Shown here: positions 546-24,039 of the stretch, one piece after another
How positions within the stretch are numbered: position 1 is the first letter of the stretch
How the letters are laid out: every line of letters begins with the position of its first letter
NCBI GenBank assembly: GCA_036310005.1
Contig: JAXJSP010000039.1
Span: forward strand, 2,378-66,377
Length of the DNA: 64,000 nucleotides
From: Acutalibacteraceae bacterium
Lineage (GTDB): Bacteria; Bacillota; Clostridia; Oscillospirales; Acutalibacteraceae
Direction: 5' to 3'
Notes under the pieces: model-generated
The model's input: the letters and a program-made list of their open reading frames with translations, nothing else
What the model was told of the DNA's origin: nothing
The model's database searches: none
Position numbers and translations under genes: made by a program

Positions 546-1454
546 TTAAAGTGCGGACTGTGTATCGTTGGGGTCACCGTTTATTGCAAGGTCATATTCT
601 TCCGACCAATCAAGTCCTCGATAATCGGCTGCTCTTTCATCTTTTTCGATAAAGTCCATAAGAAGGTCAAGCATATCCTTTGACCAGGTGTTTTTATCTA
701 TTTGTGAAGGAGTAAACTTGTTGATTGATACCATTTCAAAACCGAAAAGGTCTTTTACTTGAGTCTTTGCCGCACCGCCGACGACTTCTTCAACCAAGTG
801 AGACGGTATGAACAAAACACCGCCGCCTGCACCAAAGACTACATCTCCGGGCAGACAAATTGCGTTACCGATTCTGGTAGCAGTGTTATAACCTGTGATT
901 ATGAAATCACGAATCGGTGTCGGATCAATACCGCGATAATAAACCTGTGTATCTTCAATTTTTTTCATTTGTTCGGTATCTCTTACGCCGCCCCAAACAA
1001 CAGCTCCGCCATTTTCATTTTTAGTTTTATTATAAATAGCATTTGTAAGATTACCGCCAAGGAAAGTACCCTTATAAATCTTATCATACATATCAATAAC
1101 CGGAACGTCATATTCCATAAGATTATCAATTATCCATTGATTATAGGTACCTGTTCTGCCTTCACTTCTGCCTATATCTTTTATAGTTTCATCAAGGTCA
1201 GGACGGAATGGGCAATATGTAGCAGTAACTGCTCGACCGATAAGTTTTCTGCCGTCATCGTGCAAAGTATGAAGTCTGCCTTCAAACTGACTTTCATATC
1301 CTTTAACAAAAATAGGTTTCCAAACTTCTTCAAGAGTTAATGTTTTAAGTGCTTTTAAATATTTTTCATCAACCTTAGGTCTTCCGTCGGGCAAGCGCTC
1401 GCCTTTCCATTGTGGTGTTAAAGCAATTATTTCTTCTTTGCTGTTAAAATTCAT
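546..1454 (-). CDS. RraA-family / class II aldolase-like protein, long form
   Basis: ORF 546..1478. Start moved to ATG 1452-1454 (MNFNSKEE), which follows SD aagaggag. The GGNLTNA...VWGGVRD...YRGIDPTP segment resembles the RraA / HMG-CHA aldolase fold. Confidence 0.6.
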   Translation of the reverse strand: MNFNSKEEIIALTPQWKGERLPDGRPKVDEKYLKALKTLTLEEVWKPIFVKGYESQFEGRLHTLHDDGRKLIGRAVTATYCPFRPDLDETIKDIGRSEGRTGTYNQWIIDNLMEYDVPVIDMYDKIYKGTFLGGNLTNAIYNKTKNENGGAVVWGGVRDTEQMKKIEDTQVYYRGIDPTPIRDFIITGYNTATRIGNAICLPGDVVFGAGGGVLFIPSHLVEEVVGGAAKTQVKDLFGFEMVSINKFTPSQIDKNTWSKDMLDLLMDFIEKDERAADYRGLDWSEEYDLAINGDPNDTQSAL

Positions 1455-1468
1455 TATTAATACTCCTC

Positions 1469-2806
1469 TTAACTCCAAATTCTATCATTTGAAAATTCTC
1501 TGTCCCATTCAGTAGTAGGCTCAAAATATCCAGGAATTTGCGGATTAATATGTTGTTTAATAACTTCTTCATTAATATCATCAAAACCAAGTCCCGGTTT
1601 TTCAGGCACTTTGATAAATCCGTTTTCAAACAACGGGTTATTAATGCCGGTAACAATATCAGCCCACCAAGGAACATCAACAGAGTGAAACTCAAGTGCT
1701 AAACAGTTATGCATTGCAGCAGCAGTATGTACAGCGGCAAGGCAAGCAATCGGGCTTTCAGCCATATGAACAGCAGTTGCAACACCGTGTTCATCAGCAA
1801 TATCAGAAATCTTTTTAAGTTCCAAAGCACCGCCGCAAGTTAAAATGTCAGGGTGAATTACTGAAACACCGCCTGCTTTAATAAGTGTTTCAAAGCCTTC
1901 TTTAAGATAGATATCTTCGCCGGTACAAACAGGAATTGTTGTGCTGTTTTTAAGTCTGACATATTGGTCTGTGTACATCCAAGGAATCATATCTTCTATC
2001 CAAGCAAGGTTATAAGATTCCATTCTTCTTGCAAAGCGGATGCAGTCTTCAACGCAAATGTGTCCGAAATGGTCGATAGCAAGAGGTACTTCATAGCCGA
2101 TAACTTCTCTTACTTCCTTAACATAATTTTCAAGGAAATCAAGTCCCTTTTCTGTTAAATGAATACCTGTATGAGGATGAGCAGTAGTAACTATGGAATA
2201 ACTCTTTTGATGTTTTACCATATCTGCAGTGACACTGCCGCCTTGAACATTAAGAATATGGCTTGCATATTTCTTCATATCCTCAATAAAGCCTAAAGGT
2301 GCATTTAATGTACCTGGTTCATCAAGCAAAAGACCGATACCGAGGTCCATTTTTAAGAATGTGAATCCCATTTCCATTCTCTTTTTAAGAGCAAGTCCCA
2401 TATCGTGACCTGTATGTTTACCGTCAACATCAGTATCACAGTAAACTCGAACTTCATCACGGAATTTTCCGCCTAATAATTGATATACAGGAACTCCGTA
2501 TGCTTTGCCTGCTAAGTCCCAAAGTGCAATTTCAATACCTGAAACGCCGCCACCCTGACGAGAAGGACCGCCGAACTGTTTAATTTTATGAAAAATCTTG
2601 TCAACATTACAAGGATTTTCACCAACAATACGGCTTTTAAGCATTAAAGCATAAGTTTTAGAAGATGCATCACGCACTTCACCATAACCGCTGATACCTT
2701 GGTTAGTATCAATTCTTAAGATTGTGCATCTTTTCGGTGCTCCATCAATATCAACAAAGCGCATGTCTGTAATTTTTAAATTGCTTGGGTTTGAACACTG
2801 ATTCAT
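1469..2806 (-). CDS. Enolase-superfamily (mandelate racemase/muconate lactonizing) acid-sugar dehydratase-like protein
   Basis: 445 aa. GYGEVRD, FTFLKMDLG, LAIDHFGH and WIEDMIP segments are typical of MR/MLE barrel enzymes. SD aaggag precedes the ATG. Confidence 0.75.
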   Translation of the reverse strand: MNQCSNPSNLKITDMRFVDIDGAPKRCTILRIDTNQGISGYGEVRDASSKTYALMLKSRIVGENPCNVDKIFHKIKQFGGPSRQGGGVSGIEIALWDLAGKAYGVPVYQLLGGKFRDEVRVYCDTDVDGKHTGHDMGLALKKRMEMGFTFLKMDLGIGLLLDEPGTLNAPLGFIEDMKKYASHILNVQGGSVTADMVKHQKSYSIVTTAHPHTGIHLTEKGLDFLENYVKEVREVIGYEVPLAIDHFGHICVEDCIRFARRMESYNLAWIEDMIPWMYTDQYVRLKNSTTIPVCTGEDIYLKEGFETLIKAGGVSVIHPDILTCGGALELKKISDIADEHGVATAVHMAESPIACLAAVHTAAAMHNCLALEFHSVDVPWWADIVTGINNPLFENGFIKVPEKPGLGFDDINEEVIKQHINPQIPGYFEPTTEWDREFSNDRIWS

Positions 2807-2843
2807 AATAATAAACTCCTTTATATTTAATGGGTTTAACTAA

Positions 2844-4205
2844 TTACAATGTAATAACAACATCATTATTATCGTTTTTTAATACATCAAATGTTTTAAT
2901 CTCTCCGTCGATTTCGATTTCATAAGAACCGTAAAAGCCTCTGAAATCGACTCTACCGTTTTCATCGGTCGTAAGATCAAGTTCGGTGTGCCATTTTTCA
3001 TTCAATAAATAATAAAGTCTTTCAGCTGATTTTTTAGGTGTTAAATCTCTGTGGAAAAGTCCGCCGCGGCAATTATTTTCATTCCAACCGTTGCGTGAAT
3101 ATCCTGTTCTGTCAACAGAATTCCAATAAACGATAGTTTCCATTTTAGGAATAGAGAACCAAATAGTATAAAATGTTTCAAGAAGGTCTGCCTGTATAAG
3201 TTCAGCTTCTTCATCATCGCCCGGAGTCGGTATTGTACATTCGGTAATCTCAAGCGGAAGTCCGAAATCTGAAAGATAATCTAATGATTTAAAATAGTCT
3301 TCGGGGTTCATACGGTTTGAATAACTTGCTATTAATTCATCGCTTGGTTGTTCGCCTTCATCAAGTTCAACCGCATAAAAAATATGATTTTGAAAACCGA
3401 TTTTATCTATAGGTGTACCTTTTGCAAGTAATTTTTCAAGTTGTAAATAATACTTTGCGTAATAGCCTTCTTTTGCTATAACATTCAACTCAGGCGCGCC
3501 TTCATTCATTACAAGTGTTTCATTTGGGAAATACTTTCTTGCAAGGTCAAATGCCCATTCTACTATATCTTTCTTATAAGAGAGAATACTTGATTCGCCT
3601 TCATCCACCCATCCGGGAGAACAGAGTGTTTCGTTAATTACCTCAAACTCAAACATTTTTCCGCAATAACGCTCTGAAATTTCACGAAAACGCTTTTCAT
3701 ACAGTTCTCGCATTTTCTTTTCGTCTTGCTTTGGCAACCAATCGGGTATTGCCATATATTTATCATAAAATAAACAATGCAGTTTTGGTAAAATTCCGTT
3801 TTCGTTACAATATTCTACGCAAAGGTCGGGTGCGGGACGACGATATACTTTAGGGCTGTTTTTTTCATAACGGGTTTTACCTTCTTCAGGTTCGGTACCT
3901 TCCCAATAAAAAGGCACGGTAGCCGCATTAAAGTATTTTTTGAACATCTCGCGATATGCAATATTATCCTTTTGATCATCAAATTCGTCTAACATAAAAA
4001 TATTAGCACCGAAATTAAATTCGTGCGTTTTCTGACGAACAGACACTTTCTTATTAACAATCGGATTTCCGTTTTTATCGTTAATAATAAGTTGTTTATC
4101 GCCTTTTCGATACTTTTCAATATCTCGATCGCATCTTTCTTTTGTTGCTTGTTTTTGCTCCTCAATTTTCTCAAACCAAATTTTTCTGATCTCTTTTGAT
4201 GTCAT
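2844..4205 (-). CDS. GH10-like glycoside hydrolase, no signal peptide
   Basis: 453 aa. FNAATVPFYW...EP..G, FEVINETL (acid/base-like NE) and LEITECTIP (nucleophile-like TE) resemble GH10 xylanase motifs. The N-terminus is hydrophilic. Confidence 0.55.
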   Translation of the reverse strand: MTSKEIRKIWFEKIEEQKQATKERCDRDIEKYRKGDKQLIINDKNGNPIVNKKVSVRQKTHEFNFGANIFMLDEFDDQKDNIAYREMFKKYFNAATVPFYWEGTEPEEGKTRYEKNSPKVYRRPAPDLCVEYCNENGILPKLHCLFYDKYMAIPDWLPKQDEKKMRELYEKRFREISERYCGKMFEFEVINETLCSPGWVDEGESSILSYKKDIVEWAFDLARKYFPNETLVMNEGAPELNVIAKEGYYAKYYLQLEKLLAKGTPIDKIGFQNHIFYAVELDEGEQPSDELIASYSNRMNPEDYFKSLDYLSDFGLPLEITECTIPTPGDDEEAELIQADLLETFYTIWFSIPKMETIVYWNSVDRTGYSRNGWNENNCRGGLFHRDLTPKKSAERLYYLLNEKWHTELDLTTDENGRVDFRGFYGSYEIEIDGEIKTFDVLKNDNNDVVITL

Positions 4206-15913: not shown

Positions 15914-15953
15914 AAACAAATGAGTTCTGTATAATACAGAACTCGTTTGTTTT
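15912..15953. terminator. Bidirectional hairpin terminator
   Basis: aaacaaatgagttctgt / acagaactcgtttgttt arms between convergent genes. Confidence 0.75.
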
Positions 15954-16791
15954 ATAATGCACTATTTATAATTTCTCTATATACTTGCATATTATCATTT
16001 GTCGGTACTGAAAATTTTTCAAACTCGATATTTAATGCGTCGTATTTATGCTCTCCCATTGAGTGATAAGGCAGCAATTCAATCTTTTTCGAATTTATCT
16101 GTTTTAGAAATTTTGAAATTTTAATCATTTCTGCTTGATTGTCATTATATCCGCCTATTACCGGAATTCGAATAATAATTTCACCATTAAAGCAGTCAGA
16201 TAATTTTTTAATATTTTCAAGTATCAGTTTATTAGATACGCCTGTACCTTTAATATGCAACTGTTCTGAAAAACACTTTATATCATATAAAAACAAATCG
16301 GTATAAGGCATAATTTTTTCAAAATTTTGCCACGCTATATTCCCTGCTGTGTCAACTGCGGTATGTATTTCGTTTTCCTTGCATTTTTTAAGTATTTCAA
16401 GGAGAAAATCAATTTGCAGCATACACTCTCCGCCTGAAAATGTTACTCCGCCTCCTGAATTCTCATAGAATGATTTGTCCTTTATTATTTCTGCAAAAAC
16501 TTCCTCAACTGAATATTCTTTGCCACAAATTTTTCTTGCATCTTGCGGACAGTATAATTCACACTTGCCGCAAAAATCGCATTTTTCTAAATGATTAGGG
16601 CAAACTTGATAACATTTACCGCAGGCGGTACACTTATTTTTATAAAACAACATCTCTTTTTTGAAAGATTGGCTCTCGGGGTTGTGACACCAAACACATT
16701 TTAAATTACACCCTTTAAAAAATACTGTTGTCCTGATTCCCGGTCCGTCTACAAAAGAGTTTCTTTCAATATCAAAAATTGTCGCTTTCAT
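15952..16791 (-). CDS. Glycyl-radical enzyme activating protein (radical SAM)
   Basis: DGPGIRTTVFFKGCNLKCVWCHNPE (CxxxCxxC) plus a ferredoxin-like insert CTACGKCYQVCP...CDFCGKCELYCP. Last gene of the GRE operon. Confidence 0.9.
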   Translation of the reverse strand: MKATIFDIERNSFVDGPGIRTTVFFKGCNLKCVWCHNPESQSFKKEMLFYKNKCTACGKCYQVCPNHLEKCDFCGKCELYCPQDARKICGKEYSVEEVFAEIIKDKSFYENSGGGVTFSGGECMLQIDFLLEILKKCKENEIHTAVDTAGNIAWQNFEKIMPYTDLFLYDIKCFSEQLHIKGTGVSNKLILENIKKLSDCFNGEIIIRIPVIGGYNDNQAEMIKISKFLKQINSKKIELLPYHSMGEHKYDALNIEFEKFSVPTNDNMQVYREIINSAL

Positions 16792-16819: not shown

Positions 16820-17716
16820 CTATTTGCAACTTAACATATCAATCGGGTTTTGCCTGATGATTTTATCAAAAACATCTTCAGGTAATCTTGGGCGAATATA
16901 GTCAAAGACATAAGAAAAACGAACATTATCTTTAATTTTCGGCCTTGCCTCAAAACCGTTAAAAAATGATTCATCGTGTGACAAAATTATTTTATCAGCA
17001 TAGCCCTCATCACATAGGCTTAAAACAGTATTAACTTTTTTATTGATATACTCTTCTGTTTTAACATCATACATTCTGTCTAAACCTATATAGCAACCGC
17101 TTTTTGCGATTTTTAATATATAGTTTAAATCTTCTGTATCACTTAAATGACCTATTGTAATTTTCTCAGGTTTTACTCCGTTTTCCAACAAAAACTCAAG
17201 TGCTGACAGCCCATTTTGATTGTTTGCATTTGTGTGCACTACTATCGGTAAATTCAGTTCTTTATATACTACTGCAGTCGCTTGGAGAATTTTTTTATTA
17301 AAATCACTTGTGTTTTTACTTTCAACAGCAGTTTTTATTATGCCGGCGTTTATATTTTTTGCATCATTTATTATATGCTCTGCTAAAGTTTGAACAGAAC
17401 TTGTGAATAAAACCGGCTCATCAGTATAGTAAAAACCTGTCGAACATACAATATTTACACCACTTTTTTCTGACACTCTTTTAAGCAGTTCTATGTTTCT
17501 GCCGATATTAATCGGTGTGCAGTCTACGAACAAATTCAGTCCGTATTTTTCCTTAAGCAACCTTAATTCTGCAACTGCTTTTTCTTCAAGTTTGTCAAAG
17601 TCCAGATAATCTTTGCCAGACATCATATAAAGATAATCACTATAGCAGCAAATATGCTCATGGCATAATGCTGTATGAATCTCATTTGCGGATATATTAC
17701 CTAAAACTGTTTTCAT
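16820..17716 (-). CDS. Phosphotriesterase-related (PHP/PTE-like) amidohydrolase-superfamily protein
   Basis: 298 aa. The N-terminal HxH (LCHEHICC), VVHTN and ILSHDE segments fit the PTE-like binuclear metal hydrolase pattern. Confidence 0.7.
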   Translation of the reverse strand: MKTVLGNISANEIHTALCHEHICCYSDYLYMMSGKDYLDFDKLEEKAVAELRLLKEKYGLNLFVDCTPINIGRNIELLKRVSEKSGVNIVCSTGFYYTDEPVLFTSSVQTLAEHIINDAKNINAGIIKTAVESKNTSDFNKKILQATAVVYKELNLPIVVHTNANNQNGLSALEFLLENGVKPEKITIGHLSDTEDLNYILKIAKSGCYIGLDRMYDVKTEEYINKKVNTVLSLCDEGYADKIILSHDESFFNGFEARPKIKDNVRFSYVFDYIRPRLPEDVFDKIIRQNPIDMLSCK

Positions 17717-17745: not shown

Positions 17746-18864
17746 TTATACAGGCATATTCTGGAGTTCTTTAATTTTTTTGCTCCAATATTCTATATCG
17801 TCTGTTTTTTCGTATGCATATATTTTTGCAATAGATTTTAATTGACTGTTATGCGCTTCACATGACACAAGATTGTAGTCTCCAAAGCCACCGCCTATTC
17901 GGGGATACCACTGGTGTAACCATGACCACCCGCTAAAATATAACTCCAACTCTTTTTGATTTTGAATTATCTTTGATAACTCATCAATGTAGCTCATCAT
18001 TTTAATCTTATCGTCACCGTCAAAAACCGTAATTTTAGTTTTCTCAGTATTAAACTTATAAGGTATTATCTCAAGAGAAACCTTATCAGTAATATTAAGT
18101 ATACTTATATATCCGTAAAACCAGGAATCTCTGCTTTTCCTTTTAATATCACTTTGAAAAATAAAATTTCCCATACTGTAAACAATAGGTTTTCCGTTAT
18201 ATATTTCATAACCTTGCGGACAATGAGTGTGTGTCGCTATCAACGCGTCCGCACCCATATCGCAGATGAATCTGTACCTGTCTACAGTGTCAGGAGATGG
18301 CAGCGGGTTATGTTCATTCCCGCCGTGAAATACAACGACAACCTTATGCCCGAATGCTTTTTCCTTTCTTATTCTATTAAGGAGAAATCTGGGGTTATAG
18401 CCCGCCGACCCGTATTCAGCTTCTCCGGCTATGCCAAATTCGTTTTCACACACAGAGATAACTGAAACAGAAATGCCGTCTTTTTCTATTCTAAGCGGCT
18501 CATAAGCATACTCAATATTTTTGCCCGCTCCGGAATGAAGTATATTGTTTTCATCAAGCAAATCAAGTGTATCTTTTACTGCGTTTTCGCCAAAATCACC
18601 GATGTGATTATTTGCAAGAGTTACCGCATCAATATTTGCGGTATTTAAAAATACTATATTTTCAGGAGAACATATAAGATTCGGTCCTGCTTTTTGAATA
18701 GGTTTATGCTTTTTTATATCCGCAAGAGGACATTCCAAATTAACAATTCTGAAATCAGAATTGTTAAAATAAGGTAAAATATCAGATAAAATATCTTCCG
18801 AAGTCTCCTTCGTGAAATTCTCAAATAATCTGAAATTGACATCTCCCGTAAATAAAATTTTCAT
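17746..18864 (-). CDS. CapA/PGA_cap-family metallophosphatase-like protein
   Basis: MKILFTGDVNF, LANNHIGDFG, VVFHGGNEH and ATHTHCPQG are typical of the CapA family. Confidence 0.75.
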   Translation of the reverse strand: MKILFTGDVNFRLFENFTKETSEDILSDILPYFNNSDFRIVNLECPLADIKKHKPIQKAGPNLICSPENIVFLNTANIDAVTLANNHIGDFGENAVKDTLDLLDENNILHSGAGKNIEYAYEPLRIEKDGISVSVISVCENEFGIAGEAEYGSAGYNPRFLLNRIRKEKAFGHKVVVVFHGGNEHNPLPSPDTVDRYRFICDMGADALIATHTHCPQGYEIYNGKPIVYSMGNFIFQSDIKRKSRDSWFYGYISILNITDKVSLEIIPYKFNTEKTKITVFDGDDKIKMMSYIDELSKIIQNQKELELYFSGWSWLHQWYPRIGGGFGDYNLVSCEAHNSQLKSIAKIYAYEKTDDIEYWSKKIKELQNMPV

Positions 18865-18867
18865 ATG

Positions 18868-20211
18868 TTATGCCTCCTCAGCCCTGTCACATGCAAGTAA
18901 CATATTTACCGTTATTTCTAACGCTTCCAGCATGCCGTCAATGCTTATACATTCATCGGGCTGATGCGCTCCGCCGTGTCCTACGGGTAAATCAAAATCA
19001 GGTTTTTGCCAGATTTGTGTACCTACTTCAACCGCACACGGTAAATGGGCTGCGTATGTAGCACCGGCATTAACATAAGTCGGTGATTTTTTAGTACCCG
19101 TATAGTCTTCATACGCTTTAAGGCATGCTTTAAGATAAAGATTATCAGTATCTGTTATCCACGCAGCTAATTCATCAACAAATTCAACTGTCCAGCCATT
19201 TTCTTTGAAATATTTAACAATTCTTTCTTTTGCGACTTTAATGTCGGTACTCTTACCATAACGCATATCAAAAGAAAGGTTGATTTTCCCGTCATTCATT
19301 CCGATAATACCGTTTGCACAGGTGAGTTTTCCAAAAATGTGGTCTGTGTTTTCTATACCGAAAACTTCGCCATAATAGTTTTCAAGAGTTTTTGCAATAA
19401 AAAGCATTTCCTCTTTGTCAGAGTCACACAAAAATTCATTTTCTGACAGTTCTTTAGAAAGTAAAAAAGCAGCATTTTGTGAGCCCTCAGGTAATGCACA
19501 ATGGCTTGAAATACCTTTTTCGGTAAAAATTATATCTCCGATTTTGGCAGTAGCCTCGCCTAAAACAATGTTAAACGATTTTCCTCCGCTAAAATCTGAT
19601 ATATTCTGCATTTTTTTACCGGAAGATGCAACAAATCTTAAAATACCTTTATCACCGCGATACAATGGAAACTCAGTGTCAGCAACGATTGAAAAATCAG
19701 GTGCTTTATGCTTTGTTGTGTATGCTGAAATATCATTCATTCCGCTTTCTTCATTAGAGCCTGTAAACATAACAAGCCTTGAGTTAAAAGGAATATTCTG
19801 TTCTTTAAGTATTTTAGCACAATACAATGAAATTACAACTGCAGATTTATTGTCCGATACTCCCCTACCAATCAAAAAGCCGTCTTTGATAAGAGGCTCA
19901 AACGGTTTAGTATAAATCCAGTCATCACTAACAGGCACAACATCTGCATGAGCAAACAGGCCAATACTCTTTTTGCCCTTTCCATAATATGAAAGCAAAA
20001 AGCCGCTGTCAGCATCAAGATAAGTATTATAATCGTTTTGCTCATAAAGAGTTTTTATGTGTTCTAATACATTCGCACACTCTTTACCGAAAGGCGCACC
20101 TGTTTCAGCTTTACCTCTAACAGAGGGTATTTTGACAATCTCTTTAAGTGTATTTATGATTTCTTCTTTATGTAAGTTAATATATTCGTGTATTTTTTTT
20201 TGATATTTCAT
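18868..20211 (-). CDS. M20-family dipeptidase (PepV/Sapep-like)
   Basis: 447 aa. FAHADVVP, RGVSDNK and SNEESG metal-ligand motifs. Confidence 0.8.
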   Translation of the reverse strand: MKYQKKIHEYINLHKEEIINTLKEIVKIPSVRGKAETGAPFGKECANVLEHIKTLYEQNDYNTYLDADSGFLLSYYGKGKKSIGLFAHADVVPVSDDWIYTKPFEPLIKDGFLIGRGVSDNKSAVVISLYCAKILKEQNIPFNSRLVMFTGSNEESGMNDISAYTTKHKAPDFSIVADTEFPLYRGDKGILRFVASSGKKMQNISDFSGGKSFNIVLGEATAKIGDIIFTEKGISSHCALPEGSQNAAFLLSKELSENEFLCDSDKEEMLFIAKTLENYYGEVFGIENTDHIFGKLTCANGIIGMNDGKINLSFDMRYGKSTDIKVAKERIVKYFKENGWTVEFVDELAAWITDTDNLYLKACLKAYEDYTGTKKSPTYVNAGATYAAHLPCAVEVGTQIWQKPDFDLPVGHGGAHQPDECISIDGMLEALEITVNMLLACDRAEEA

Positions 20212-20223
20212 AATAAGTTACCT

Positions 20224-22344
20224 CTATTTTTGAGTAGTCCTTGAAATTATATCATCCTGTATGCTTTCATTCAATCTCACAAAATAATCTGAAAAACCTG
20301 TTACACGCACACGCAGACTTTTATAATCTTCGGGGCTTGCTTTTGCGTTGATTAAATCCTCCTTTGAAACATAGGTTAATTGGAAATGAATTCCGCCATT
20401 TTTAAAATAAGTTTCAAACATATCAACTGTTTTTTCAAAATTATCATCATTCTTAACAAGTTGCTCATCAATAGATATATTTGTAACCGTTGAGCCGCAA
20501 GAGATACCGTAAGGGTCAAGTTTTGCGATTGAATTAAGCAGAGCCGAAAGTCCGTTTCTGTCACGACTCTCACTTTGTCCGATACCGAACTTAACTAAAT
20601 CACCGTTATATCTTCCGTCGGGAGTTGCCATAGTTTGCTCGCCGAACCATTTATGGTGTTCGTTATAACCGAGCAAATCACCGACAAGCCACTGATAACC
20701 GAAAACATTCTTTCTGTCCTTCATAAAATCATAAAAACTCTTATAAAGTCTTTGAGCGACATAGTTTGACAAGTCATCATCATTACCGAAAAACTTACCC
20801 TTTTTCAAAATTAAGCAGCGTAAATATTCATAGTTTTGCCAATTGTTTTTAACCGCTTTGATAAGTTCGGACATAGTAACAATTTTTTCATCATATATAA
20901 ACTGCTTTACGACTATTAATGAATCAATAACATTTGTAATGCCAAGCAGCATCGGCGATGCAATAACTATATCTCCTCCGCCTTGTGTTAAACTTTTAGC
21001 ATTTTCAATACAGTCATTAAAAATAAGGCTTGAAACATAATTTATATCTTTTGCGCGTTGTATATTGTACTTATTATCATAATCGAAGCCGGTCCGCAAA
21101 TCGGAAAATAACTCTTTTTCAAATACTCTGTAAAAGCTTTCAAAATCGGGGCAATTCTTAATTTCCTCTGATCTTTTATGAAAAAGATTATCAACGCACC
21201 TGACAATATTTATCTTTGAGTTGCTGCCTGTTATAGCACCGAGAAAAGCCGGTTCGTTACATCCGACCATTGTATAATTAACTGCTCGTTCAAACGGAAA
21301 ACCGCAGATTTGCGTATAGCACTTTATTCTCTTTTCATCGTTTGTGAAAGCAATTCTTTTATACTCGTCATTTCTTTCTGCATCCATAACGAATTTTAAT
21401 ACTTCTTTGGGAGTTTTCTTAGTCCAGCGCAGAGTTATTTCAGGACAATGTGTAGGTATATCCATTAGGCTCTCTACGATAAGTTTTGAAACCTCATTGA
21501 ATGCATCCTCTCCGTCTGGCAGATATCCGCCTATACAAAAGTGAGATTGTCCGCCGCGAGTGAAATTAGGTGTATTTACGGGAGTTTTAGATTGCAACAA
21601 AAGGAACAATTCTTGCAAGTATTCTTTCGCTTCATCTTTTGTAATTATTCCTTTTTTAATATCATTTTCATAAAAAGGTGTTAAGTATCTGTCGAGAGTT
21701 CCTACGCTGTCGGGGTCTAAACTGAAACAAATATATATTGAAAGTACCGCCTCATAAAAATCAGACGGTTTATTTTTCGGCACAGTTAAAAGCGCTTTAG
21801 ATAATTTTAAAAGGTTTTGTTTATATTCATTTTCTTCAACTGTTTTAGCAAATTCTAATACTTTTTCAGAACAAAGTTCTGCCCATTTAATAAAAGTTTG
21901 CGCAACTTTTTTCAAGCCCAGTAAAAACTCGATTTCTTCTTTTTTATCGTGTGTTTTTAAGGACTCGTCAATTTTATCAATAATTCCTGATACACCGCAT
22001 TTTAAAACTGAGGTGTAATCACCTGTTGCGTGTTGCCATTCCATAGTAGAAAGATTGTCAATAGATTTTAAATAAAACTCAGACATCGCTTTGCCGGTTT
22101 CTAAATGACCGTTTCTTTCAAAAGCATCGCCGACAACACTTCCGTCAAATCTGAAAAAACCTGTCATATTGGAATACTTTGTGATTTTAGGTTCCTGATT
22201 TAAAATATACTCACAAATTCGTTTAACTTCCATATCTGATTTGGATAAGAACAAGTCTTCACGGTCAAACTTTGTTTTTACTGTATCTACATACATTTCA
22301 CCATTTAAAGTTAACTGTGTAAGTTTTTTAATTCTATTTGTCAT
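20224..22344 (-). CDS. Glycyl radical enzyme, pyruvate formate-lyase-like superfamily, short form (706 aa)
   Basis: C-terminal glycyl radical motif SLRVRVTGFSDYF (Gly683 codon 20296-20298). Cys loop MVGCNEPAF (Cys362 codon 21259-21261). Activase encoded in the same operon. Confidence 0.85.
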   Translation of the reverse strand: MTNRIKKLTQLTLNGEMYVDTVKTKFDREDLFLSKSDMEVKRICEYILNQEPKITKYSNMTGFFRFDGSVVGDAFERNGHLETGKAMSEFYLKSIDNLSTMEWQHATGDYTSVLKCGVSGIIDKIDESLKTHDKKEEIEFLLGLKKVAQTFIKWAELCSEKVLEFAKTVEENEYKQNLLKLSKALLTVPKNKPSDFYEAVLSIYICFSLDPDSVGTLDRYLTPFYENDIKKGIITKDEAKEYLQELFLLLQSKTPVNTPNFTRGGQSHFCIGGYLPDGEDAFNEVSKLIVESLMDIPTHCPEITLRWTKKTPKEVLKFVMDAERNDEYKRIAFTNDEKRIKCYTQICGFPFERAVNYTMVGCNEPAFLGAITGSNSKINIVRCVDNLFHKRSEEIKNCPDFESFYRVFEKELFSDLRTGFDYDNKYNIQRAKDINYVSSLIFNDCIENAKSLTQGGGDIVIASPMLLGITNVIDSLIVVKQFIYDEKIVTMSELIKAVKNNWQNYEYLRCLILKKGKFFGNDDDLSNYVAQRLYKSFYDFMKDRKNVFGYQWLVGDLLGYNEHHKWFGEQTMATPDGRYNGDLVKFGIGQSESRDRNGLSALLNSIAKLDPYGISCGSTVTNISIDEQLVKNDDNFEKTVDMFETYFKNGGIHFQLTYVSKEDLINAKASPEDYKSLRVRVTGFSDYFVRLNESIQDDIISRTTQK

Positions 22345-22483
22345 TATTGACTCCTCCTTTACTATTTTAAGAATAATGCCTATTAATTAAATAGTAAATG
22401 TCAACTATGATACTTTTGTCATTTACAACACTTACTTTACAAACAATTTAACTTGTGTTAAGATTACGTAGGGTGGTAAAATT

Positions 22484-23251
22484 ATGGAAAATGTTCATAT
22501 TTCAAAAATACAATCTGTTATATTTGTTGAACCTTTAAGCGACAACATAAAAAGAGGTGTTTTTGGAAATAATCTTTATTTTTACGAGTTAGTATTTAAG
22601 ATTTCGGGAGAGAGCATTATTAGTTTTAACAATAAAAAAATTCACCTCACTCCAAATTCTGTTATGATTTTACCTAAATCAAATAATGTAGAATATTATG
22701 TTGATTACATAAAGCAAGGTGAATGTATAGATGTGTTTTTCGACACTGAAAATTTGCTACCAAAAGAGGCATATAAAATAGATACTTCAAATAATATCAA
22801 GTTGAATAATTTGTTTGTTAAAATTCATAAGATTTGGACAAGCAGACAGCAAGGATATTACAATAAGTGTATGTCTTTACTTTATGAGATTTTCAGCGAG
22901 ATAGAAAAAACAAAATATACGCCATCATCAAAAGTTAAGCGACTAAAATTAGGCATTGAGTATCTTAATACGAACGCATTATCTCAAGATATTGATTATC
23001 TGAAACCTGCAAAGTTATGTAATGTTTGCCCTACCTATTTTCGCAGAGCATTCAAAGAAATCTACGGTATTTCCCCTTTTGAGTATGTTAAAAAAATCAG
23101 AATTGATTATGCAAAAGAATTATTACTGCTAAATCAATATTCTGTATCTGACATTTCAAATCTTTGCGGATACTCAGATGTTTACCAATTTTCAAAACAA
23201 TTTAAGAATACTGTCGGAGTTTCTCCAAAAAATTATCGGCAGTTTTCATAA
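22484..23251 (+). CDS. AraC-family transcriptional regulator, divergent from the GRE operon
   Basis: C-terminal HTH (CPTYFRRAFKEIYGISPFEY, GYSDVYQFSKQFKNTVGVSPKNY). Confidence 0.85.
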   Translation: MENVHISKIQSVIFVEPLSDNIKRGVFGNNLYFYELVFKISGESIISFNNKKIHLTPNSVMILPKSNNVEYYVDYIKQGECIDVFFDTENLLPKEAYKIDTSNNIKLNNLFVKIHKIWTSRQQGYYNKCMSLLYEIFSEIEKTKYTPSSKVKRLKLGIEYLNTNALSQDIDYLKPAKLCNVCPTYFRRAFKEIYGISPFEYVKKIRIDYAKELLLLNQYSVSDISNLCGYSDVYQFSKQFKNTVGVSPKNYRQFS

Positions 23252-23281: not shown

Positions 23282-23872
23282 TTATTCAAAATACATTAAG
23301 CCGAACATACTCGGATTGTGAAAAGCAGAAACCTGCTCGACAACAGGGCACCATGATAAATAATGTTCTTGAACACAAAGTTCGCCGCATTTATATAGAT
23401 TTGCTTTTATCTTTTTACCGCTTTCGAGTTTAAATTCAGGAAAAAATCTGTTGATAAACTCACATGGAATTTTATAAAAAACTTCCCAACCGTCTTCGGT
23501 TTTATTTATCTTCAAATCAAAAAGTTCTTTAAAATCGACAACAAGCCTTACAAGATTGTCAACAGACGAGCCAAAGCCTAAAAAAACGCATCCTGCAAGA
23601 TTAATTTCAATATTAAAATATCGTAATTCATCGCTGTTCGGACAAAAGAAAAATTCAAGGCAACTGTCTTTACAAGGCGCACCGAGAATATCTGTTTCCT
23701 CGCTTCTTATATCCTTTTCGACAGCACGAAGATGGACTAAAATTTCTTGCTTTTTGTATGCCACCTGTCCGTAAGCAAAAATACCCTTCGCCTTTTCACC
23801 GTAAGGCGTATCAATATTGATTACGGGGACATTCTGCCAACCATTAAATTTTTGAATTAAATAGTGTTTCAT
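23282..23872 (-). CDS. CBM9/DOMON-like carbohydrate-binding-fold protein, cytoplasmic
   Basis: ORF 23282..23926. Start moved to ATG 23870-23872 (MKHYLIQ), about 10 nt after aaggaa. CLEFFFCPN...YFNIEIN pattern. Assignment is by family resemblance only. Confidence 0.4.
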   Translation of the reverse strand: MKHYLIQKFNGWQNVPVINIDTPYGEKAKGIFAYGQVAYKKQEILVHLRAVEKDIRSEETDILGAPCKDSCLEFFFCPNSDELRYFNIEINLAGCVFLGFGSSVDNLVRLVVDFKELFDLKINKTEDGWEVFYKIPCEFINRFFPEFKLESGKKIKANLYKCGELCVQEHYLSWCPVVEQVSAFHNPSMFGLMYFE

Positions 23873-24039
23873 TTCAATCATTTCCTTGTTTTTATACATC
23901 TTAACAAATTGTACAACACTTGTCAATAAGGGTATATTCCGAAAACACTATCTGTTTTTAATTTAAAATACTTTTATTTATTGATTAAATTTTACTGATA
24001 TGTTATAATAATTAATTGATAATAGAGGGAGTTGAGTGT

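Follow-up and report, generated by a model that had tools for sequence, protein, structure and literature searches.

Does an unusually short gene for a glycyl radical enzyme (GRE) represent a damaged copy of a familiar enzyme or a naturally compact one, and, if the latter, what might it do? The question is raised by an open reading frame (ORF) on the reverse strand, at positions 20224-22344, of a 64,000-nucleotide stretch of contig JAXJSP010000039.1 from an Acutalibacteraceae bacterium (assembly GCA_036310005.1), called the window in what follows. We find it likely that this ORF encodes the catalytic subunit, intact, functional and oxygen-sensitive, of a GRE of the PFL2 type, that the enzyme is one of a compact, uncharacterised clade with lengths of about 700-730 amino acids, which we call the GCNE clade after the sequence of its active-site loop, and that its short length is native.

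The ORF consists of 706 codons and a stop. The sequence RVRVTGFSDYF opens at residue 678 and contains the radical site Gly683 (codon 20296-20298, reverse strand), which is aligned to Gly763 of glycerol dehydratase (GDH) and to Gly765 of HypD. The thiyl loop, MVGCNEPAF, opens at residue 359; its Cys362-Asn363-Glu364 segment occupies 21253-21261 on the same strand, with Cys362 at 21259-21261 and Glu364 at 21253-21255. Cys362 and Gly683 are 321 residues apart, within the spacing of approximately 315-335 expected of GREs. A first-pass annotation of the window had given the same coordinates, motifs, length and spacing, all of which were reproduced exactly.

Two Pfam domains account for most of the protein: PFL-like (PF02901; E = 7.9e-82, 276 bits against a cut-off of 24.3) matches residues 95-549 over profile positions 149-630, and Gly_radical (PF01228; E = 9.5e-20, 71.6 bits against a cut-off of 22.2) matches residues 587-689. 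The best PDB matches have an E-value of 6e-62 when the single sequence is the query and of 1e-82 when the family profile is used; such agreement with the family is far beyond chance. The AlphaFold2 model has a mean predicted local distance difference test score (pLDDT) of 88 and a predicted TM-score (pTM) of 0.89, and Foldseek superimposes it with TM-scores of 0.81-0.84 on HplG, propanediol dehydratase (PD), GDH, HypD, HpyG, CutC and PFL2, none of which is favoured; the earlier view that the barrel is intact thus holds for the model. Cys362 and Glu364 are aligned with C433/E435 of GDH, C434/E436 of HypD and the equivalent residues of HpyG, CutC and PD, where the loop reads C-V-E, so that they do occupy the catalytic-loop positions to which they had been assigned. 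His105 (22030-22032, reverse strand), within the invariant EWQHAT motif, is the counterpart of the general acid, His164 of GDH and His166 of PD; it is invariant in the family alignment and present in every row of the GCNE clade in our trees. With the barrel domain, the RVxG radical domain, the Cys-to-Gly spacing and a cognate activase all in place, the protein is a member of the GRE superfamily.

The short length, 81-140 residues below that of GDH, HypD and CutC, might still indicate a truncated, mis-assembled or pseudogene copy of a GRE of 780-850 amino acids, in which a frameshift or a wrong start codon hides 60-125 N-terminal residues, and it adds to this suspicion that residues 1-103 are without a partner in profile comparisons with the long enzymes. 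The DNA upstream of the gene argues otherwise. A strong ribosome binding site, AAAGGAGGAG, lies at 22351-22360 on the reverse strand, correctly spaced, with the ATG 6 nucleotides further; when an upstream extension was looked for, the in-frame translation ahead of the ATG proved to be crowded with stop codons; and a divergent AraC-family gene begins at 22484, a mere 139 bp from the start. The upstream extension or frameshift for which the first-pass annotation had proposed a check, at 22345-22480, was therefore not borne out.

The relatives of the protein tell the same story. Of the 120 protein clusters closest to it, at 71-92% identity, 115 are 705-708 amino acids long, and all share the N-terminus M..RI..LT.LT; the 80 related loci that we inspected, which come from different species, agree with them in length and in the start, M..RI..LT.LTL. 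When prokaryotes were scanned with one genome for each species, relatives turned up in 123 species, with a native length of 704-709 amino acids, the same N-terminus and an invariant GCNEP loop. Out of 1.84 billion representatives, searched exhaustively, 5083 matched, and the nearest full-length ones, at 31-52% identity and 701-713 amino acids, are likewise aligned from residue 1. In the model, the N-terminal 60 residues have pLDDT above 90. The strong ribosome binding site, the upstream stops, the 139-bp intergenic space and the length and N-terminus kept throughout the family establish that the gene is intact, neither truncated nor frameshifted; family-wide conservation refutes the truncation reading, to which we would assign a next to negligible probability.

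The active-site motifs are kept as strictly as the length. GCNEPAF is found in all 120 of the closest clusters and RV[TS]GFS in 118 of them, the other two having RVTGYS; in a 44-sequence alignment (59-92% identity), His105, Cys362, Asn363, Glu364, Pro365 and Gly683 are invariant, and GCNEP shows no variation across the 120 clusters and 43 relatives taken together.

Where, then, is the length lost? Relative to GDH (787 amino acids), the deficit amounts to 81 residues, of which 59 precede the conserved histidine (His105 here, His164 in GDH), 12 lie between the histidine and the cysteine, nine between the cysteine and the glycine, and one in the tail past the glycine. The 22 residues missing after the histidine represent small internal deletions throughout the core, including a deletion of seven in a substrate-binding loop. 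The description of the enzyme as N-terminally shortened, with 60-125 N-terminal residues missing, is thus correct in that most of the deficit relative to GDH lies ahead of His105, but not in placing all of it there, nor in any implication of damage: the native proteins are 704-709 amino acids long with a conserved N-terminus, and, measured against this family of about 700 amino acids, the N-terminal region is complete.

Comparison by hhalign with a profile of 18 long GREs paired residues 104-706 with positions 159-788 only (probability 100%), with deletions of 5, 7, 2+3, 2, 12 and 3 columns in the compact enzyme. The N-terminal module, residues 1-103 (22036-22344, reverse strand), had no significant partner in the comparisons with the long-GRE profile, and when the N-terminal 112 residues were compared with the first 172 of the long enzymes, the probability was 0.3% in the global and 0.6% in the local mode, with the first helix alone being paired. 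In a MAFFT alignment of 26 GREs, some short and some long, the first helix (RI..L) is anchored in all sequences, as is the third (…I.I…ELIVG; here …KITKYSNMTG), and the gap falls between the third helix and strand β1; Foldseek alignments to targets of 785-789 residues cover 795-816 columns, i.e., essentially the proteins from end to end. This placement of the gap is based on the MAFFT alignment and the end-to-end Foldseek length, without statistical support from the profile comparison, and it suggests that the N-terminal module, approximately 55-59 residues shorter than in GREs of 780-850 amino acids, has an internal gap after retained first helices and not a terminal truncation. The short length is most likely the native architecture of the clade; since the tree is unrooted, a deletion in this lineage and an insertion in the long enzymes are indistinguishable. 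The helices ahead of the barrel form the conserved GRE dimer interface (PMC13450708), which makes the oligomeric state of the compact enzyme of interest.

We compared the protein with NCBIfam models of characterised GREs, and no equivalog cut-off was reached. The best score, 264 bits, was with the HypD model NF043068 (cut-off 1100), followed by TIGR01774 (PFL2-3, the PFL2/glycerol dehydratase subfamily; 257 against 678), the HpsG model NF048011 (255 against 1000), the CutC model TIGR04394 (204 against 1050) and two models of the set used for isethionate/2,3-dihydroxypropanesulfonate lyases and arylacetate decarboxylases, NF033718 (204 against 1100) and NF033715 (160 against 1150). The pyruvate formate-lyase (PFL) model TIGR01255 gave 81 bits against a cut-off of 994, and the G-C-N-E loop is without the Cys-Cys pair of PFL, so we rejected identification of the protein as PFL.

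Phylogenetic analysis, by FastTree with 130 rows and by IQ-TREE (LG+C20) with 58 rows, included GDH, HypD, HpyG and CutC as references, each rebuilt from HMMER alignments to the PDB chains from the His strand onward. In both trees, a branch with support 99 (in IQ-TREE, by the SH-like approximate likelihood ratio test, SH-aLRT) separates the GCNE sequences of 701-728 amino acids, together with one row of 678 amino acids and one GCHE sequence, from the four references, which stand among enzymes of 780-850 amino acids that mostly have GCVE and RVAGYS. The conjecture of the first-pass annotation that the Asn of the loop and RVTGFS mark a divergent subfamily is supported by the trees, in which GCNE and RV[TS]GFS mark a separate clade; homologues of about 700 amino acids with a GCNE loop, for which it had proposed a check, do form a clade of their own. 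GCNE was seen once more outside the clade, in a sequence of 783 amino acids (P0264). Three other rows (P0242, P0160 and P0223) have RVATWT or RVATYS as the glycine motif, with Thr at the radical position; they resemble the aminoacyl radical enzymes reported in PMC11528403.

Beyond the thiyl loop, several residues are conserved in the clade and rare elsewhere: Asp212, His268, Asn363, Trp502 and an inserted Gly559. Asp212 is found in 23 of 23 clade rows and in about 10% of the others. It belongs to Asp210-Pro211-Asp212-Ser213 (21706-21717, reverse strand), a shortened loop, recognised by the 7-column deletion and by residue mapping, that takes the place of the loop bearing His281/Ser282 in GDH and Asp278 in HypD; in the family alignment, Pro211-Asp212-Ser213 is invariant and Asp210 nearly so. 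His268 (21541-21543, reverse strand), in RGG(E/Q)SHFCIGG, corresponds mostly to Asn in other GREs; it is invariant in the family and occurs in 21 of 23 clade rows versus 2% of other rows. Lys377 (21214-21216, reverse strand), at the position of HypD Tyr450 according to residue mapping and the tree labels, is specific to the window's own subfamily within the clade. By these comparisons, the GRE of the window is a member of an uncharacterised compact clade, known from uncultured gut and rumen bacteria.

What reaction might such an enzyme catalyse? All 1,2-eliminases that act on C-O, C-N or C-S bonds keep the C-x-E motif, in which the Glu forms a hydrogen bond with the hydroxyl of the substrate; in GDH, the leaving hydroxyl is protonated by His164 (PMC13450708). 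C-x-E is also kept by the GRE isomerases HplG, YbiW and PflD, and the decarboxylase HPAD has it as Cys503/Glu505 (PMC13450708). The earlier assignment of the enzyme, on the strength of C-x-E, to the dehydratase/lyase type rather than to PFL is thus sound as regards PFL, and too narrow in view of the isomerases and of HPAD. Because C-x-E is combined with the invariant His105, cleavage of a C-O or C-N bond assisted by Glu and His is the most likely chemistry, dehydratase activity not being proven, and the protein is most likely a radical eliminase or isomerase with a new substrate. In such a mechanism, the co-encoded activase would install the radical on Gly683, from which it would be handed to Cys362. 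The thiyl radical would take a hydrogen from the carbon that bears, or is next to, a hydroxyl of a small polar substrate, Glu364 would deprotonate this hydroxyl, and His105, as the equivalent of GDH His164, would protonate the leaving group on the adjacent carbon, so that the C-O (or C-N) bond is cleaved by 1,2-elimination or ring-opening isomerisation; finally, the product radical would recover the hydrogen from Cys362.

The predicted pocket, with Asp212, His268, Asn363, Lys377 and the extra Gly559, would be built unlike that of every characterised GRE. Since the substrate-binding residues of GDH and HypD are missing as well, the substrate is most likely one that has been assigned to no GRE so far.

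The genes around the GRE offer some indications as to what this substrate may be. In the window, the GRE gene is followed on the same strand by four genes with gaps of 3-29 nucleotides. The first (18868-20211) encodes an M20 dipeptidase of the Sapep/PepV family (TIGR01887, 232.8 bits against a cut-off of 207.95), with Sapep (3KHX) and PepV as the closest structures. The second (17746-18864) encodes a PGA_cap protein, CapA-like with a metallophosphatase fold (PF09587, 4e-54), whose only relative in PDB and NCBIfam is the MslH epimerase. The third (16820-17716) encodes a protein of the phosphotriesterase (PTE) family (Pfam PTE, 1.5e-49); its best PDB chains, 4g2d and 2vc5, are deposited as 'aryldialkylphosphatase', and we take them to be PTE-like lactonases. 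The last (15952-16791) encodes the GRE-activating radical SAM enzyme of 279 amino acids (TIGR02494, 325 bits against a cut-off of 174); the HypD activase is its best equivalog, at 343 bits, under the cut-off of 425. Directly past the activase stop, at 15922-15944 (reverse strand), a terminator-like hairpin with a 10-pair stem and a T run marks the end of the operon. On the other side, the divergent AraC-family regulator (22484-23251, forward strand; Pfam HTH_18 and HTH_AraC) is followed by a gene for a 214-amino acid protein with a CBM9_2 carbohydrate-binding-like domain (23282-23926, reverse strand), ahead of ruvC-ruvA-ruvB.

Across the 80 related loci, the core of the cassette consists of the AraC gene, the GRE gene and the activase gene: the regulator adjoins the GRE in 55 loci, and the activase is downstream of it in 59. 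The other genes are optional and occur in varying order, mostly between GRE and activase. The M20 gene is present in 31-32 loci, the PTE-family gene in 16-18, a short-chain dehydrogenase/reductase (SDR) gene in 17, the PGA_cap gene in 13, with the M20 gene nearby every time, a gene for a hydrolase of the β-lactamase fold in six, and one for an uncharacterised 320-amino acid protein in three. Accessory content does not track the GRE tree, and near-identical GREs carry unlike accessory sets, which implies rapid shuffling of the cassette content. Examples from different metagenome-assembled genomes (MAGs) are locus L043 compared with L046, L020 with L019 and L012, and L030 with L051; the differences in the genes that follow near-identical GREs include M20 in one and PTE in the other, or SDR-PTE-M20-PGA_cap in one and none of these in the other. 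Six contigs (loci L010, L018, L024, L028, L049 and L062) carry two or three paralogous GCNE-type cassettes, each with its own AraC gene.

We tentatively propose, giving it slightly less than an even chance, that the GCNE clade acts on a substrate class new to GREs, such as a polar hydroxy acid, a hydroxy-amino acid or a compound derived from a sugar acid or lactone, freed from amide or ester/lactone conjugates by the swappable hydrolases of a horizontally shuffled, AraC-controlled cassette, and that the reduced N-terminal module may alter the dimer interface. The dipeptidase, lactonase-like, CapA-like, β-lactamase-fold and SDR proteins would probably funnel different conjugates into one substrate; alternatively, they might process the carbonyl product. 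Of the specific candidates that we considered, namely aldonate dehydration (following an SDR and lactonase logic), hydroxyproline-like amino acids, parts of acyl-homoserine lactones, pantoate/pantothenate and parts of muropeptides, no single one accounts for the whole set of accessory genes, and several are without a vicinal leaving group, which a C-x-E eliminase requires; we keep them as speculation.

Several points weigh against a radical eliminase or isomerase of the GCNE clade supplied by its cassette. In the cassettes examined, there is neither a transporter nor an aldehyde dehydrogenase, nor any other enzyme that would obviously act downstream; microcompartment genes are likewise absent from them. 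The accessory genes are missing from many cassettes and hence may have nothing to do with the substrate of the GRE. The separation of the clade in the trees is measured against partial references, which represent just four characterised enzymes and begin at the His strand. The limb of the Cys loop after Cys362, residues 363-372 (21229-21258, reverse strand), is the only stretch of the model with pLDDT below 50, even though its residues vary little or not at all across the family, and it may adopt a conformation unlike that of the GCVE enzymes. Finally, the presence of C-x-E in HPAD means that the motif does not fix the reaction class. The last two points would favour a different type of chemistry, either an HPAD-like decarboxylation or a radical reaction without elimination, in which Glu364 acts on the cysteine or on a carboxylate, and the unusually polar and charged pocket (Lys377, His268, Asp212, Arg263) could indeed bind a carboxylate. 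We regard this as unlikely: of the GREs compared, HPAD, indoleacetate decarboxylase (IAD) and the succinate synthases match the protein least well in both sequence and structure, the cassettes examined contain no small-subunit gene, and the general-acid histidine of the diol dehydratases is invariant here.

The compact GCNE-type enzyme, in our opinion still best understood as an eliminase or isomerase, has a wide distribution. Nearly all of the 123 species come from gut, faecal or rumen MAGs of Clostridia, and two are Kiritimatiellia; for the clade as a whole, the taxa are uncultured gut and rumen Clostridia, Kiritimatiellia and Lentisphaeria, with at least 123 species. In the window's own order, only eight of 201 genomes have the GRE gene, and the best matches belong to other families, which together suggest horizontal spread of the gene. 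In the literature library that we searched, no paper describes the clade, and nothing relevant was found on GREs with a link to a dipeptidase, phosphotriesterase or lactonase.

The same genome (1.64 Mb) has a second, orphan AraC-GRE-activase cassette (locus L081) on contig C22, at 1072-3333 and 257-1075 on the reverse strand and 3379-4194 on the forward strand. Its GRE is 753 amino acids long, has RGCYETG as its Cys loop and an unusual Gly motif, RVCGWN, is only 26% identical to the GRE of the window, and also reaches no NCBIfam equivalog cut-off. The only further PF02901 match in the genome is an 84-amino acid ORF on the same contig (locus L083, 1525-1779, forward strand), which corresponds to positions approximately 511-589 of the PFL2 profile in a wider frame broken by a TAG, and looks like a remnant of a GRE gene. 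As the remaining match is this fragment, the genome appears to have no PFL.

GREs drive consequential anaerobic chemistry in the gut, including the formation of trimethylamine, hydrogen sulphide, p-cresol and skatole and the use of hydroxyproline. Against this background, the clade is recognisable by a simple signature (a length of about 705 amino acids, EWQH, PDS, SH, GCNE and RV[TS]GFS) and by its dedicated activase and regulator; it has the smallest PFL2-type architecture among those seen here, could reveal how far the N-terminal helical region can be reduced in a GRE that still has to dimerise and be activated, and may be a tractable system for the discovery of new substrates. As a system it is of a known kind, and a specialist would find it interesting rather than surprising.

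How does the enzyme compare with the characterised GREs? GDH of Clostridium butyricum (1R8W/1R9D) and PD of Roseburia inulinivorans (5I2A/5I2G) have the same 10-stranded barrel, with TM-scores of 0.81-0.82, and include the best profile match (E = 1e-82). Their catalytic Cys, Glu and His, and the radical Gly, all have counterparts (Cys433, Glu435, His164 and Gly763 of GDH as Cys362, Glu364, His105 and Gly683 here), and their activases, like the one in the window, have extra ferredoxin-like clusters. The differences are considerable: identity is about 23%, the GRE of the window is 81 residues shorter, with an N-terminal module that profile methods do not align, Val434 is replaced by Asn363, and RVAGYS by RVTGFS. 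We take His281, Ser282, Tyr339, Asp447 and Tyr640 to be the diol-binding residues of GDH. The loop with His281 and Ser282 is seven residues shorter in our enzyme, and the two alignments disagree on the counterpart of Ser282, which is either Pro211 or Ser213; Gln/Glu266 takes the place of Tyr339, Asp447 falls in a gap, and Tyr640 corresponds to Leu557. Thus, the general-acid histidine of the glycerol and propanediol dehydratases is present and their set of diol-binding residues is not, and the enzyme is found in a separate clade and has no microcompartment or aldehyde-processing context.

The hydroxyproline-type enzymes HypD (6VXC), HpyG (8ID1), HpzG (8IOF) and HplG (7VUA) provide the best single-sequence and NCBIfam matches, for GRE and activase alike, and HplG is the top Foldseek match. 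Their C-x-E loop is aligned with ours, and their substrates, amino-acid derivatives, would fit the dipeptidase of the operon. However, the HypD score is 264 bits versus the cut-off of 1100, the GRE of the window is about 80 residues shorter and in another clade, Ser334, Phe340, Tyr450 and Thr645 of HypD are replaced by Asn260, Gln266, Lys377 and Asn561, and Asp278 is in the deleted loop.

These similarities raise the possibility that the protein is a divergent orthologue of a characterised GRE, of the HypD/HpyG/HpzG type or a glycerol/propanediol dehydratase, with the same substrate: HypD and GDH are the best NCBIfam and phmmer matches, the activase is closest to that of HypD, His105, Cys362 and Glu364 reproduce the catalytic triad of GDH and PD, and the dipeptidase could supply an amino acid. 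We consider this quite improbable. The scores of 204-264 bits are far under the cut-offs of 1000-1100, neither Foldseek nor the family profile favours any one enzyme, and a branch with support 99 parts the clade from all four references; none of the HypD residues Ser334, Phe340, Tyr450 and Thr645 or the GDH residues Tyr339, Asp447 and Tyr640 is conserved, the shortened loop leaves HypD Asp278 and GDH His281/Ser282 without a clear counterpart, and no genes for pyrroline-5-carboxylate reductase, aldehyde dehydrogenase or microcompartments are found among the cassettes.

Among the systems close to the compact GCNE enzyme are also other short GRE clades of 692-760 amino acids, and because many of these exist, compactness alone is not unique to it. 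One of them (GCYE/RVCGWN, 753 amino acids) is represented by the second AraC-GRE-activase cassette of the same genome. Such clades, e.g., those with GCYEP/RVCGWN, GCIET/RVSGFS or [ST]CVEI/RIGGYS as Cys- and Gly-loop motifs, are known only from metagenomes and share the compact build, with a reduced segment ahead of strand β1; they differ from the GCNE clade in these motifs, have approximately 26-33% identity to the GRE of the window, and form separate branches of the tree.

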